In this document: in pieces, positions 1,496-63,324 of the stretch | Position numbering within the stretch: the first letter of the stretch is position 1 | Layout of the letters: each line of letters begins with the position of its first letter | Assembly (NCBI GenBank): GCA_964016885.1 | Contig: OZ024748.1 | Span: 21,514,001 to 21,578,000, forward strand | Reading direction: 5' to 3' | From: Eledone cirrhosa | Taxonomy: Eukaryota | DNA: 64,000 nt | Made by a program: the position numbers and the translations under genes | The notes under the pieces: model-generated | The model's database searches: none | Seen by the model: the letters and a program-made list of their open reading frames with translations, nothing else | Told to the model about the DNA's origin: nothing

Positions 1496-1542
1496 TGCTC
1501 CGAAGAATCCAAACCTTGGTTTGGAGGAAACAATTGTAAGCA
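1496..1542 (+). ncRNA. Type I hammerhead-ribozyme-like motif, core variant CCGAAGA
   Basis: tgct-CCGAAGA-a-tccaaacc-tt-ggtttgga-g-GAAAC-aatt-GTA-agca: stem I tgct/agca, 8-bp stem II, palindromic stem III ACAATTGT, GUA site. One core substitution (CUGA>CCGA). Confidence 0.6.
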
Positions 1543-2589
1543 TATAAATGATTTGAACAGAACTTTGATTCTTATAACTTATATATATATATATATATAT
1601 ATATATATATATTGGTAAAAGGAAAAGAAAATGCTGACAAATTGTTCCCAGTGAAAAATAGTTTAATTAGGAATAAGTAAAAATTAGTAATAGTATTGGT
1701 TAGTATTCAGTTTTGGTTTTAAGTTTTACCGGTTGCGCATTTCTAATGCTTTTCAAAAATAATTTTGAGATAGAGCGCCCGTGATGTTTGCTCTAATCTG
1801 TATATGTGTGTGTATATATATATATATATATATATATATATATATATATATATACACATATATGTATGTGTATGTATATATATAAATATATATATATATA
1901 TATATACACACACACACACACACACACACGTACAGCAGTACATAATTGCTGAGATATTTCTGTCAATATAGCCTGTAAGATAAGGTAGTATTAGGCTGAT
2001 GTAGTTGTTTCATGTGACACAAGAAAGTCTATAAAATGTAGAAATTTATTAATTTAATACAGTTTTAATCTGATAATTTTTGAAGAATTCCTTTAAAGTA
2101 TTTTGTTTTGGGATAATAAACTGCTACATCTTTGGTTCAAAGTCTACACCTGGCACCACACTGAACATCAAATTCATTCATGTAACTATTTATGTGTCTG
2201 TATATATATACATACATACATATATATATATGTGTGTGTGTGTGTGTGTATCTTCATATATTCCCCTAAACTGATTCTTTTCCCAGCTTCCCATTTAAAA
2301 CTCTGTGATAAACTATTTTGAAATATTACTCCACCAAAAACTCTATTATCTACACACATCTTTATTGCATTTAAGATTCCACCATGAATAATAATAAGAT
2401 CTGGTGAAATAAGATCCATATTTACTCCTCTCCTATTTTATGAGAGCTGGTGGCATATAGACTTACATATGGTGTGACATAAAAGCACAACTGGTGACAT
2501 CTTGTCAATGTTAAAAGTACATCTGTGAGCACATTGAAGTACAGTTCATATCACAATCAAAAGCATGCAGTTTGTGGAACATTAAACGA

Positions 2590-2790
2590 ATTTATCTGGT
2601 GACACATAAAAGATCTACAGTTCATGGCACATTAGAGAGGTATATCTAATGGCACCTAAACATACATTTGGTGGCACATAAACATACATCTGGTGATGCA
2701 TAACCATACATCTGGTGATACATAAACATACATCTGGTGATACATAAACATATATCTGGTGTCACATAAATATACATCTGGTGGCTCATG
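2590..2790. repeat. Degenerate ~22-bp tandem repeat
   Basis: Repeated CATACATCTGGTGATACATAAA-like units. Confidence 0.7.
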
Positions 2791-2928
2791 AAACTACAAA
2801 TTTTAATAAAATACGTACCAGTAATACAATACAGAATACAAACAGAATTCTCTCACCTCTTTCTGTTCAAACCGGCTGTAACCAACCACACATACTGATG
2901 TTATGGCATTGTTCTCAAAATAAATAAT

Positions 2929-3115
2929 TGTTTCTACTTTTGGCACAAGGCCAGCAATTATCCCAGTACATTACTGGTACTTTATTTTATCGCCCCCTTA
3001 AGGATGAAAGGCAAAGTTAACCTTGGCAAGATTTGAACTCGGACCATAAAGGGCCGTAACCCTGTGATGTAAAGCACAGCATCCGATCCTCTACTGATAC
3101 TGCCAATCCACCGCC
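2929..3115 (-). mobile_element. tRNA-derived SINE family A, with TSD
   Basis: Reverse strand reads GGCGGTGGATTGGCAGTATC (A-box-like)...GAGTTCAAATC (B box)...CTTTCATCCTT..GG..CGATAAAATAAAGTACCAG core...GTAGAAACA. TSD caaaataaataat/caaaatagataat. Confidence 0.9.
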
Positions 3116-3186
3116 AAAATAGATAATACCAAAATCTCATAGATTCGATATTATGTGAGATAAAGCCTTTACCATGAAAATATAAT

Positions 3187-3373
3187 TGTTTCTACTTTTT
3201 GGCACAAGGCCAGCAATTACCCAGTGCATTACTGGTACTTTATTTTATCGACCCCGTAAGGTTGAAAGGCAAAGTTAACCTCGACGGGATTTGAACTCAG
3301 AATGGCAAGGGCCGTAACTCTATGCGTCAAAGCATGGCGTCCGACCCTCTACCGATACTGCCAATCCACCGCC
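3187..3373 (-). mobile_element. tRNA-derived SINE family A, with TSD
   Basis: Same family; perfect 15-bp TSD ccatgaaaatataat (3172-3186 and 3372-3386). Confidence 0.9.
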
Positions 3374-3967
3374 ATGAAAATATAATAGTATATATAAAGT
3401 AATGTAAATGCTAAAGGGTTAAATCAATCTTTATTCTTGACATTTTTTGCTAATTTATTCAAGAAGGGAACAACAATGTCCAGTATAGGGGGTTTTTATT
3501 AGTTTGTTTCATTTTTTTCTTATGAAAATCCCAAACAAGGCATGAAGCTACTTAGTGTAAGGGACTGTGAAGAAGGAGAAGTTAAAACGAAAAGAATGAA
3601 TTTACTTCAGATTTGAAAGAGTTCTTTGGGTTATAAGAAGAAAGAGGAAAAGAATGAGATGGAAGAATGTTCGAAAGTCTGGCAGTTTGGGGAAAGAAGC
3701 TACAACAATCCATAGAAAGATGTCTTTATCTGTGGAACTACAACATGGGGTTATTTTAGGGTTAGGTTGAGTTAGGGATGTGAGTGGAGTTGTAGGGTGG
3801 TGTGGCAGTGGTGGCAGTGGATTTAGTGGTGGTGTGGTAGTGGTGGTGATGGTGGTGTTGATAGCAGTGCTGATAATGGGGGTACTGATAGCCACTATTT
3901 TTTATTTACTTGTTAAATGGTAATTTCCTTCCTTTTCTTTATATATATATATATGGAGCGGGGAATT

Positions 3968-60301: not shown

Positions 60302-61250
60302 TTGAAGATTAGAAATAAGATGTAGGAAATGTTAAAGGAGGTGTATTCAGCTACTGTGTACAGATATAAGCAATAAGATAAAGAAATTATCTTTGTAATC
60401 ACATGGTTCTGGTTTCAATCCTGCAGTGCAGTTCTTTAGATAAGTGTCCTCAAACTTAACTTTGGATCAATCAAAGCAATATTCCTTCAACGTTTTAGTA
60501 AGCGGTGTGAGCAAAAATCTACAGGCTGTGGGTTTATCCATGTCTGCTCATGTTTGCCAAACATAAAGTTGAGACATATTTTAAGACCTGCTCTATAGTT
60601 CAACATGTATATAGAGCATTACAACCAAATGAAGATGGTAAATAATGGAAGGCAGCAGATATCATTTTATATTCTCTTTTATCATATCGTATATCATTGG
60701 AAATATCTTTAAATGTTATCTACTCTGTCATATCACATATATCATCAATTTTATTATATATATATGTGTATATATGTGTGAATATATATATATATATATA
60801 TATGCATATATGAACCTAATATAACTGTGTACAATTCCTTCTTGTGTTTTGTTCATTCATTTTCAACTATACACACACACAAACATATATATAGTTATGT
60901 ATATGCCAGCAAGGAAGAAAAGGATATTAGATGACAATGATATATATCATTATCACTGTTTAACATCCATTTTTCCACGCTAGCATGGCTTAGACAAGTT
61001 GTCCTGTTGTGAGAAATGCCAGGTCAGGTGACCATCTCTTGCTCATACAGAACTGATTTGGGTTTGCATACTACAGCTGGATGCCCTTCCTAACACGCCT
61101 ACCACATTTACAGTGAGTACTGGATGTTTTTTGTTGTGACACCTAATATATATATATATATAGTATACATAGCTATGGTATAGGGCCCTTAACTACTGAT
61201 GGTATCATAGAGACGTCATCCTGATACATGGCAGGTCTAGGGCATTTTAA

Positions 61251-61471
61251 ACCTTTAGCATTTACATTACTCTATATTTACTATTGTGTTTTCAGGTAAA
61301 ACACTTTATTTCACATAATTATCTCACATAATATCGAATCTATAAGATTTTTATGTTATTTATTTTGAAAACAATGCCTTAACAGAAATATGAGCAGCCA
61401 GTTATGGCTGGTTTGAACAGAAAGAGGTGAGAGAATTCTAGCTGGATATAGCCGGTTGAAATGCTAAAGGG
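61251..61471 (-). mobile_element. piggyBac-type MITE
   Basis: TTAA-ACCTTTAGCATTT...AAATGCTAAAGGG-TTGA; reverse of the next copy. Confidence 0.85.
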
Positions 61472-61594
61472 TTGAACCTGGCAGAGCACATTCCTCCCCA
61501 GCGCATAACATAGCCACAGAAAGATAGACAGATACAGAAAGGGATAAGGCTAGACAGAAGAACAATCGACCTCAGTACAGAGCTGGTATTTTAA

Positions 61595-61815
61595 CCCTTT
61601 AGCATTTAAACTGGTCATATCCGGCCAGTATTCTCTCACCACTTTCTGTTCAAACCGGCTGTAACTGGTCACTCATACTGACATTAAGGTATTGTTCTCA
61701 AAATATATAACATCAAAATCTTGAAGGTTTGATATTATATGAAATAATTATGTAAAACAAAGCCTTAACCACAAAAATACAATAGTAAATATAAAGTAAT
61801 GTAAATGTTAGAGGG
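61595..61815 (+). mobile_element. piggyBac-type MITE inserted in an older SINE
   Basis: TTAA-CCCTTTAGCATTTA...TAAATGTTAGAGGG-TTAA; the flanks join into a degenerate family A-like SINE. Confidence 0.85.
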
Positions 61816-62912
61816 TTAATTATCAACTTTGAAAGGATGAAAAAGAAAGGTAACGTTGGCGGGGTTTGAACTTAGGGCTCAAAATGCTAAAACAAATCTG
61901 AGTTATTTTTATCTAACAAACTAAAGGCTCTGTCAATTCACTGCATCATATATTTACATATTGTATATATATTTCGTTTCTGAATTGGCAACATGACCCT
62001 CCCAAAGCATAACAATATATATCATCATCATCATCATCATCACCGTTTTACGTCCGTTCTTCCACGCTAGCATGGGTTAGACGGGTTGTCCTGTTGTGGG
62101 CAGTGTCTGGTCGGCTGACCATGCCTTGCTCATACAGGAACTGATTTGGCTTGATTTCTACATATATAATGAAGGAAGTGTGGTAAGGAACCAAGTAGAC
62201 CATAATGCACCAGAGCACTCAATACTTAGGGTAGTAGAGTGGGTAATAGGAAAATGTTCAAGACCCCGACGGCAGAGCTCAAGCCGTTTCGACGGCTAGC
62301 CTTTTCTCTCTATATCGTTATTATTAATATTATTATTGATGTTGTAATTTGAATTTGTAAATTTGCCGGCTACATATATATTTTTTTAACAGTTTCCGAA
62401 GATCTGATAGAGCTAACATCGTATTTAAAATTGAGTGGCACTGCTTTTAGTGTTCAGCAATTTTTAGACAACTTTATCAGTGAAACAATTGTTAGACTGC
62501 AAATAAATCCCCTTTTTTTGTTCTGTTGACCATGTTATTCTTCACTTTTTCAATTTTATTACTCCAAGATAAACTTACATATGAATACAAGTGAAATCAA
62601 AAACCTCTTGTTGAGTCAAGCAACGCCGTACGCTAAAGCTATCGATAATAAGAAGTATTCACAACCTCTAACTGCATTACCTATAACAATATTTTGTTAT
62701 CCTTTATATATGTATATATATTTGTGTGTGTATATATATATATATATATGTATATATATTTGTGTGTGTATATATATATGTAAATATATATGTATATGTA
62801 TATATATTTGTGTATATATATATATATATATGTATATATATTTGAGTATATATATATATTTGATATATATATATGTATATATATTTGTGTGTATATATAT
62901 ATATATATGTAT

Positions 62913-63028
62913 AATATAGAAGAGCTTCTACAGGACTAGAACTGTTTCATTCGTGAGAAATCATCAGGGGAGCTCCCTGATGATATCTCACGAATGAAAC
63001 AGTTCTAGTCCTGTAGATCTTCTATATT
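62913..63028. ncRNA. Head-to-head inverted pair of hammerhead motifs forming a ~116-bp palindrome
   Basis: Centre GGGAGCTCCC; each arm reads CTGATGA-t(a/t)tctcacgaat-GAAAC-ag-ttctagtc-ct-GTA. The minus arm continues GAAGCTC, which can pair with the upstream GAGCT. Confidence 0.65.
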
Positions 63029-63268
63029 AAAATTTTTGTACTCCGCTATGTATTGAGTACCTTACTTTCTGTGGTTACCTCCGATTCAACCCGGAATAAC
63101 TTATTATATATATGTATATATATTTGTATGTATATATATATTTGTATATATACATATTTGTGTGTATATATATGTGTGTGTGTATATATGTACATATCTC
63201 AAATGTCCCAAGGCTCTAAAACCATCAACACCAAAAAACACAAAGCTGGCATATCTAAGAACTTACTA

Positions 63269-63324
63269 ACTGCCTGATGAGGTCATAGCCATACAATGGC
63301 TATCATCGAATTATATATAGTAGT
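63269..63324 (+). ncRNA. Hammerhead-like motif with one core substitution
   Basis: actgc-CTGATGA-ggtcatagcca-tacaa-tggctatcatc-GAA(T)-tatata-TA-gtagt, then AATAAA. Stems I and II pair; A15.1 is replaced by T. Confidence 0.6.

Follow-up and report, generated by a model that had tools for sequence, protein, structure and literature searches.

Hammerhead islands in the XYLT region

The DNA analysed here, hereafter the window, is a stretch of 64,000 nucleotides of the Eledone cirrhosa contig OZ024748.1. At 17730..17981 of its + strand lies an exon of the host gene XYLT (xylosyltransferase), bounded by AG/GT and matching PDB 6ej7 with an E value of 1.2e-8, which is considered here as context only; more XYLT-type exons are found on the + strand 43–54 kb past the window end. 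The exon match and the later same-strand exons bear out the host gene named in the initial annotation of this DNA, and the exon interrupts the single giant intron that had been thought to span the window.

All the hammerhead motifs listed in that annotation were found in place, with cores at 1500+, 22092+, 24653−, 53646−, 55311+, 56230−, 62967−/62977+ and 63274+, the motif called 40496 being a 3′ half inside a fold-back palindrome; four more fragments of the same families, absent from the first list, are described with them below, each family being named by the position of its motif. The first island (1195..1582, +) is a putative 3′ end of a Hydra-type Penelope-like element (PLE) with a hammerhead at 1496–1542 that has the core CCGAAGA, which is the family state, a palindromic helix III (ACAAUUGU) and the site GUA. 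The 22088 island (21944..22190, +) is the 3′ end of an ORF-less pLTR-body-pLTR family with a 2.6-kb unit; its core at 22092 and GAAA at 22130 enclose a helix II that starts with U.U and has C.C at the fourth position. The 24514 island (24312..24658, −), another putative Hydra-type 3′ end, is very young, being 99% identical to other copies; its own 5′ end trims helix I to about 5 bp, and its core (24653–24647) is separated by a 116-nt helix II from GAAA (24530–24527), the site being GUU. No CUGANGA occurs closer to the GAAA of this motif than the one 116 nt away; CUGUUAA near 24570, considered as an alternative core, was rejected because it falls within helix II. Two of the added fragments follow, namely a core-less tail related to the 62913 family (24702..24798, +) and a tail of the 40496 family (24830..24919, −).

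Farther along the window are the fold-back copy of the 40496 family, with the hammerhead 3′ half only (40419..40620, +), the end of an older family, 53606 (53579..53662, −; 81–86% identity, core 53646), whose window copy has an altered helix I 3′ strand, and an inverted fragment of the latter family retaining only the 5′ core (54290..54325, +; added here). The 55305 island (55190..55602, +; core 55311) is interrupted in helix I and the tail by a 177-bp repeat (55363–55539) with a 15-bp duplication. The 56199 island (56109..56339, −; core 56230), a putative Neptune/Nematis-type 3′ end, contains a minimal hammerhead with the helix III palindrome AACGUU. A second 3′-half copy of the 40496 family (62164..62298, −), the last of the added fragments, precedes the head-to-head fold-back of the 62913 family (62912..63104, cores 62967− and 62977+), the centre of which is the helix I 5′ strand and both arms of which have a weakened helix I. 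The last island (63198..63372, +; core 63274), a putative Hydra-type 3′ pLTR end of the 63269 family, has GAAT for GAAA, in that copy only. The CUGANGA/GAAA topology attributed to all the motifs does not apply to 1496 with its CCGAAGA nor to 63269. The AATAAA said to follow three plus-strand motifs stands directly after 22088 and 63269 but not after the other, an AAUAAA-like stretch pairing into the extended helix I of the 55305 family; AATAAA as a demonstrated poly(A) signal was rejected.

A strict type I descriptor accepts three window motifs (1500+, 24653− and 56230−), the remaining ones failing because helix I is short or damaged or the core changed. An Rfam scan of the window produced 460 matches, all of the 150 listed being microsatellite-driven miRNA matches, and a genome search with RF00163 yielded 18 matches, none inside the window. 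At least five window copies carry lesions, and in several of them the damage is predicted to preclude cleavage, the hammerheads themselves being predictions from sequence.

Repeat families, their ribozymes and their coding partners

Every island belongs to a high-copy repeat family with a fixed 3′ end, the candidate copies at first look numbering between 473 and 2,753 per family, and the proposal that many unrelated families are present holds, their number being nine. In a family-wide comparison the cores are intact across families: seven have the canonical CUGANGA/GAAA/NUH core, whereas CCGAAGA occupies its place in 28 of 28 anchored copies of the 1496 family and CUGAGAA in all four 40496 copies that extend to the core. 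The long copies of the 40496 family have a CCCC/GGGG helix I, a long helix III and the site GUC, with the core located about 196 nt from the 3′ end. As regards stem covariation, 96% of cells are paired in the 63269 family plus its sister, with one U-A → C-G change, probably a single compensatory event, and among six sequences no two-sided change occurs in the long helix II of the 24514 type.

There is no coding partner within the window, as had been noted. Outside it, examination of the linkage to RT + GIY-YIG ORFs tied six families directly to such ORFs and a seventh via a relative, so that the description of the set as non-autonomous is mostly wrong. The 63269 family is ORF-linked in eight loci; whole pLTR ends flank both sides in L071, L225 and L228, as expected of the partial tandems of EN+ PLEs, L071 having the arrangement pLTR-ORF-pLTR, and the repeat unit, which includes a long 3′ UTR, measures about 4.2 kb. 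In the 24514 family an uninterrupted 814-aa ORF lies 154 nt beyond the pLTR end (L200). The links of the 1496 and 62913 families rest on one clean locus each, in the former the ORF lies 1,456 nt upstream and the intervening DNA contains no TA run (L194), and in the latter it starts 66 nt beyond the pLTR end (L211); the 40496 family is linked in L212, L214 and L404, and the 55305 family only via a 74% relative in L207. No ORF partner of the 53606 family was found among the loci examined, and the 22088 family is the sole one found as an ORF-less unit. Contig depth over L200 rises at the hammerhead, an observation given no weight here since depth is no copy number.

An RT query gave 29,079 first-look candidates in the genome, with open frames of up to 894 aa. 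RT followed by GIY-YIG in one ORF is found in L200 (814 aa), L216/L217 (893/894 aa) and L215 (847 aa), where YRDD and YIG[AS]T were read by motif. Furthermore, the linked ORFs carry RW[KR], DKT, CxCX5C, CxxC and CxH, by which Craig 2021 characterizes the Hydra clade; the Hydra marks RWR/RWK and DKT are present in L200, L216, L217 and L222, and the CNCRNKANC, CRLC and CNH of L200 recur as the same pattern in L205, L215 and L217, CCHH being absent by eye. The clades were assigned from these motifs; 123 homologues were retrieved, and Pfam and PDB sequence searches returned no significant match for the Hydra-type ORFs. On this basis the 63269, 24514, 1496, 62913 and 40496 families would represent pLTR ends derived from Hydra-type elements that carry an ORF. 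The ORFs linked to the 56199 family (L447/L448), both broken, carry ADKGG, CSRSRCNTC and CSLC..YIGQTG..H..H, that is the DKG motif, the CX2-5CxxC linker and the endonuclease CCHH, suggesting that this family ends an element of the Neptune/Nematis type.

Origin of the islands and mode of copying

The 3′ ends of the copies are fixed and lie at (TA)n, whereas their 5′ ends are ragged or inverted; copies that read through the cleavage site are present, and fold-backs occur in most families. In three families the 5′ ends cluster at or inside the ribozyme (12/30, 15/30 and 38/71 copies), the 40496 breakpoints being taken from copies encountered incidentally at other loci; the 1496 family has no 5′ hot spot. 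Cleavage-defined 5′ ends were rejected, none of 60 copies retrieved with tail-only queries starting at the cleavage site. In keeping with the initial proposal of type I hammerheads of Penelope-like origin in (TA)n targets, the hammerheads reside in pLTRs, and all 23 found with the strict descriptor in a genome sample of 40 evenly spaced 10-kb pieces are no more than 333 nt away from a TA run, as compared with 30% of random positions within 400 nt. Very probably, the islands represent 3′ ends (pLTRs) of nine PLE families, most of them Hydra-linked, that were cut short or folded back and were inserted into TA repeats; on this reading as a whole, most window copies would be passengers in decay that play no part in XYLT.

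That the motifs are chance matches in AT-rich, palindrome-rich DNA could be suspected from the 33 CUGANGA words of the window, most of them without structure, and from folding, in which a single window motif outperforms its shuffled versions. Nevertheless, the shuffle check proposed in the initial annotation gave a mean of 0.01 matches (maximum 1) in 100 local dinucleotide shuffles against the three in the window and none in 15 shuffles of the 400-kb sample and, with cores intact across families, this explanation has a negligible probability and is counted as refuted. Selection by the host of intronic ribozymes that cut or regulate XYLT pre-mRNA would agree with the presence of four sense-strand motifs between XYLT exons, 1496 possibly sitting in the preceding intron. 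However, both strands are used, and compared with their families three sense copies (55305, 62913+ and 63269) lack either a core base or part of the helix I pairing; the co-transcription of sense copies in XYLT pre-mRNA, envisaged at the outset, holds conditionally on the intron assignment, but three of the five are lesioned and a fourth has a non-canonical core. Moreover, the density of hammerheads in the window (4.7 per 100 kb) matches the genome average (5.75 in the sample, strict descriptor), so that the set is not special to the XYLT intron, and a host function for it seems highly improbable. By extrapolation the genome likely contains about 170,000 (about 1–2.5 × 10^5) intact-looking motifs.

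Somewhat less remote, yet still unlikely, is the possibility that each short island is a retrozyme-like unit in its own right, non-autonomous but transcribed and copied independently of longer elements. This holds for the 22088 family at the 2.6-kb scale, and Penelope is described as having an internal promoter (PMC2377424); furthermore, most copies of the 62913 family (27 of 30, at most 137 nt) and of the 40496 family (68 of 71 stopping before the core) are short, with clustered 5′ ends. Yet both 62913 subfamilies include long copies (L303; L304 and L323), most 40496 copies are without a 5′ core, the ORF links of seven families, direct or via a relative, run counter to independence, and no tandem arrays of short hammerhead units are present among the matches listed.

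If the islands are truncated PLE ends, insertion likely took place by target-primed reverse transcription of an RNA probably left uncut by the hammerhead. PLE biochemistry suggests that the GIY-YIG endonuclease would nick AT-rich DNA, that reverse transcription would begin within the RNA, immediately 3′ of the hammerhead, and that synthesis, often ending after 130–350 nt and then folding back, would leave short islands as well as palindromes. PLE enzymes would be used in trans by the ORF-less 22088 family. In active elements, the hammerheads likely process tandem transcripts at a slow rate, either as dimers or assisted by proteins. The lack of starts at the cleavage site fits the findings with the Poseidon element PAc, in which reverse transcription is initiated at an internal position and mainly copies RNA that has not been cleaved (Frangieh 2024, PMC11167929).

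A tentative and on balance doubtful extension of this mechanism is that in most new insertions the position of the 5′ border is determined by the uncut hammerhead itself. Reverse transcription, having begun 3′ of the ribozyme and crossed the cleavage site, would stop or fold back at the helix I 5′ strand in the 24514 and 62913 families and inside helix II in the 40496 family; if true, the ribozyme would serve chiefly to mark the limit of a transcript or to provide a structural signal, and this would explain the altered catalytic cores of very abundant families and the ribozyme-sized palindromes found genome-wide.

Significance and relation to known systems

As a class these elements are known, the pLTRs of PLEs carrying hammerheads and the Hydra clade, as described in PMC8557442, targeting (TA)n, also in Octopus. 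What the genome of E. cirrhosa adds is scale, young families whose ORFs are uninterrupted, and naturally occurring variants of the ribozyme, which together allow a direct test of the role of PLE hammerheads; the 5′-end hot spots and the abundant altered-core families suggest that copying may proceed without cleavage. Some of the octopus repeats annotated as unclassified SINEs may also be ends of this kind.

With PAc (PMC11167929) the families share element ends immediately 3′ of the hammerhead, which in 5′ pLTRs continue toward the ORF, as well as AT-rich targets and copies that do not start at the cleavage site, but PAc belongs to another clade (Poseidon, not Hydra) and 5′-end ribozyme hot spots are not known to feature in its description. 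The 56199 family shares with the Neptune/Nematis-type PLEs described in PMC8557442 the DKG motif, the CX2-5CxxC linker and the Cys/His residues in the GIY-YIG domain, differing in that both ORFs seen are broken. The 22088 family resembles the non-LTR retrozymes (bioRxiv 10.64898/2026.07.22.740005) and the non-autonomous Chlamys derivatives (PMC8557442) in being ORF-less, with a hammerhead in a PLE-type terminal repeat and head-to-tail partial tandems; on the other hand, its unit is 2.6 kb, as opposed to the 51–972 bp reported for retrozymes, and is dispersed rather than in long arrays. The lack of coding capacity typical of non-LTR retrozymes has been found only in this family and not in the six ORF-linked ones, and in place of short tandem units the islands are single or inverted.

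A published set of 2,000–9,000 hammerheads from truncated PLEs likewise comprises thousands of mostly single, highly varied motifs, opposite-strand pairs, palindromic helices III and, in some families, an extra base after A9; the estimated numbers are larger here, G10.1-C11.1 is often absent and helix III of the 40496 and 62913 families is longer. Another comparison is with the Hydra clade of C-terminal EN+ PLEs, for which a few extra families, generally under 3 kb, and one in Octopus have been described, Hydra-1_Obim being listed with (TA)n preference and a hammerhead (Craig 2021, PMC8557442). The shared traits are RT then GIY-YIG in a single ORF with RWK, DKT and CxCX5C, (TA)n targets, a type I hammerhead close to the 3′ terminus, partial tandems, and inverted 5′ copies and tails. 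The families described here differ in their multiplicity, in the very high number of their copies and in unit length, about 4.2 kb in the 63269 family, a length under 3 kb being a general and not a defining feature of the clade, and in their more varied hammerheads, with the 116-nt helix II, C.C at helix II position 4 and fixed core changes.

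Hammerhead motifs in the window and in the genome, and the XYLT exons

The hammerhead motifs described along the window by the initial annotation are real: they are found where it had placed them, and three of them pass a strict type I descriptor, which accepted 0.01 per shuffle when applied to 100 local dinucleotide-shuffled versions, the control that it had proposed. The rejection of the others by this descriptor is attributable to copy-specific damage or to family variants; naming each family after the window position of its island, the GAAA of family copies is replaced by GAAT in the 63269 copy, helix I is interrupted in the 55305 copy by a repeat (177 bp, with a duplication of 15 bp), altered in its 3′ strand in the 53606 copy relative to L143 (L numbers designate loci of the same genome) and weakened in both arms in the 62913 copy, the 5′ start of the 24514 copy falls within helix I, and the 40496 copy lacks the 5′ core. 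Among the window motifs only 63269 folds better than its own shuffles (z −3.6), poor scores being expected of minimal or damaged hammerheads. Four additional family fragments, absent from the initial list, are present in the window. Further decayed ends are possibly represented by a minus-strand CUGAUGA at 47207, accompanied by the near-GAAA CAAACGUUAG (47170-47215), and by a CUGAUGA hairpin at 54711/54739.

In hammerhead density the window is average. Sampling of 40 evenly spaced 10-kb regions of the 3.0-Gb assembly yielded 23 descriptor matches in 400 kb, compared with 0 in 15 shuffles, and extrapolates to ~170,000 motifs genome-wide, a rough figure since the matches cluster. A downstream TA run lies at most 333 nt away from all 23 sampled hammerheads, whereas 30% of random positions have one within 400 nt. 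The matches to RF00163 (Rfam hammerhead) in L001-L010 constitute another (TA)n-flanked family, often head-to-head and with a canonical helix II.

An exon of the xylosyltransferase gene XYLT occupies 17730-17981, and additional exons, with matches to PF02485 and PF12529, are situated on the same strand 43-54 kb beyond the window, so that the motifs from 22088 onward sit between XYLT exons; the 1496 motif is upstream of the exon at 17730-17981. Given the average density, the use of both strands and the damage of three of the five sense copies, a role of the hammerheads in XYLT is unlikely. Also present in the window, at 8210-15372, 28481-30284, 35509-40417 and 50915-52504, are large minisatellites of 35 bp x 205 and 34 bp x 53, a TA-rich run of 4.9 kb and an array giving a long spurious reading frame; fragments resembling, by eye, non-LTR (LINE) retroelement ORFs are seen at 26661-27002 and at L197:2903-4246.

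Families and their coding partners

The islands are each the terminal part of a family present in many copies: a first look gave 473 to 2,753 candidates per family, figures that are lower bounds and not copy numbers. Their 3′ boundary against (TA)n is constant, their 5′ boundary ragged or inverted. As initially stated, the window holds no Penelope-like element (PLE) ORF. The premise that the families are non-autonomous, on the other hand, holds for the ORF-less 22088 unit but not for six families having ORF partners elsewhere. Indeed, the 63269 family is found on both sides of a reverse transcriptase (RT)-GIY-YIG ORF in L071 and is ORF-linked in eight loci; an uninterrupted 814-aa ORF lies 154 nt beyond the 24514 family (99.4%) in L200, an ORF starts 66 nt beyond the 62913 family in L211, in L194 an ORF precedes the 1496 family, and L212, L214 and L404 provide ORF links for the 40496 family. 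The 56199 family terminates a broken ORF whose DKG, CX2-5CxxC and Cys/His endonuclease residues indicate the Neptune/Nematis type. The 55305 family is ORF-linked only via a 74% relative, and the search for a partner of the 53606 family gave none. Those linked ORFs that were read by motif contain RW[KR], DKT, CxCX5C, CxxC and CxH, marks of the Hydra clade according to section 11 of Craig 2021 (PMC8557442), in whose supplement Hydra-1_Obim is entered with (TA)n preference and a hammerhead. A sister Hydra-type family (L216-L220, L229, L230), without a copy in the window, has open frames reaching 893/894 aa; its hammerhead is related to that of the 63269 family.

Judged from its sequence, the 22088 family is the non-autonomous exception. 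Its pLTR (PLE terminal repeat) end is directly upstream of a common body in 19 of 20 loci, and the whole 2.59-kb unit recurs in four of eight extended loci (91-94%); its longest stop-free stretch is 135 codons, and comparison with the PLE proteins collected gave nothing better than E 0.01. This ORF-less PLE derivative of 2.6 kb (L192:3801-6392, i.e., G000:C2:151,095,300-151,097,891 of this genome, and L441-L450) contains internal direct repeats of ~237 bp, and a first look gave at least 2,025 candidates for its 5′ part.

Structure of the ribozymes and of their tails

With regard to stem covariation, likewise proposed initially as a check, the 63269 family and its sister (26 distinct copies, 96% of cells paired) have one compensatory change, U-A → C-G, probably a single event; six copies of the 24514 helix II arm display eight one-sided and zero two-sided changes. 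For the complete 24514-family ribozyme a three-way junction is predicted (−47.1 kcal/mol, z −5.3), in which helix II measures 116 nt, and in the predicted 55305-family fold an AAUAAA-like stretch is paired into helix I. Helix II position 4 is unpaired, mostly as C.C, in 7 of the 24 clusters formed by the descriptor matches over the set of loci scanned. The abundant 1496 and 40496 families have the cores CCGAAGA (28/28 anchored copies) and CUGAGAA (all four copies extending to the core); both altered positions are conserved in canonical hammerheads, so that these families may cut poorly.

A second CUGAUGA with a distant GAAA in a 3′ UTR (L071:5327-5470) is possibly a decayed long-arm hammerhead. 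The tails of several families (24702-24798, 40540-40580 and 63040-63075 of the window, among others) share, ahead of the 3′ end, a CUC(C/U)...GUAUUGAGUAC-like motif that may be an RT start mark; 5′ pLTRs run on with a similar CUCC...GAGU(A/G)C.

5′ ends of the copies and relation to known elements

Queries from the 3′ end, which do not favour any particular upstream length, were used to map the 5′ ends. Of 30 copies of the 24514 family, 12 start 333-349 nt from the 3′ end, the core being at 342, and of 30 copies of the 62913 family, 15 start at 126-137 nt and 27 at ≤137, with the core at 127; against an exponential null p is ~1e-11 and ~3e-9, respectively, for windows picked post hoc and with the window's own copy included. 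None of these 60 copies starts at the cleavage site, the nearest starts being 4 nt upstream and ~5 nt downstream. Many copies of these two families are fold-backs. In the 40496 family 38 of 71 incidentally collected copies start inside helix II and three extend past the core. Hot spots at the ribozyme are not general: none is seen in the 1496 family, and in the 63269 family the hot spot (13/30) coincides with an ATAT that lies 70 nt upstream and matches the target. Possible explanations of the hot spots are a transcript 5′ end, RT stalling with self-priming and microhomology to the target. In the 62913-family fold-backs (62912-63104 of the window; L301-L330) the inverted arm ends ~10-25 nt beyond helix I, roughly 60-70 nt before the full 3′ end. 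The sole lead worth following is this accumulation of 5′ starts at an uncut ribozyme.

To the families, their ends, their ORF links and the read-through of the cleavage site, which make up the observed part of the mechanism, a scheme may be added in which the endonuclease would nick at (TA)n, RT would initiate within uncleaved RNA just 3′ of the hammerhead (cf. the Poseidon-clade element in Frangieh 2024, PMC11167929), synthesis would terminate early with self-priming (cf. Arkhipova 2013) and the 22088 family would be mobilised in trans. In the portion of PMC13282606 available the word "hammerhead" is absent. Truncated PLEs are reported in Cervera 2014 to be the source of thousands of minimal hammerheads, which are single and heterogeneous and have low dimer activity; such PLE-derived single ribozymes are already described, and the window families add members to them.
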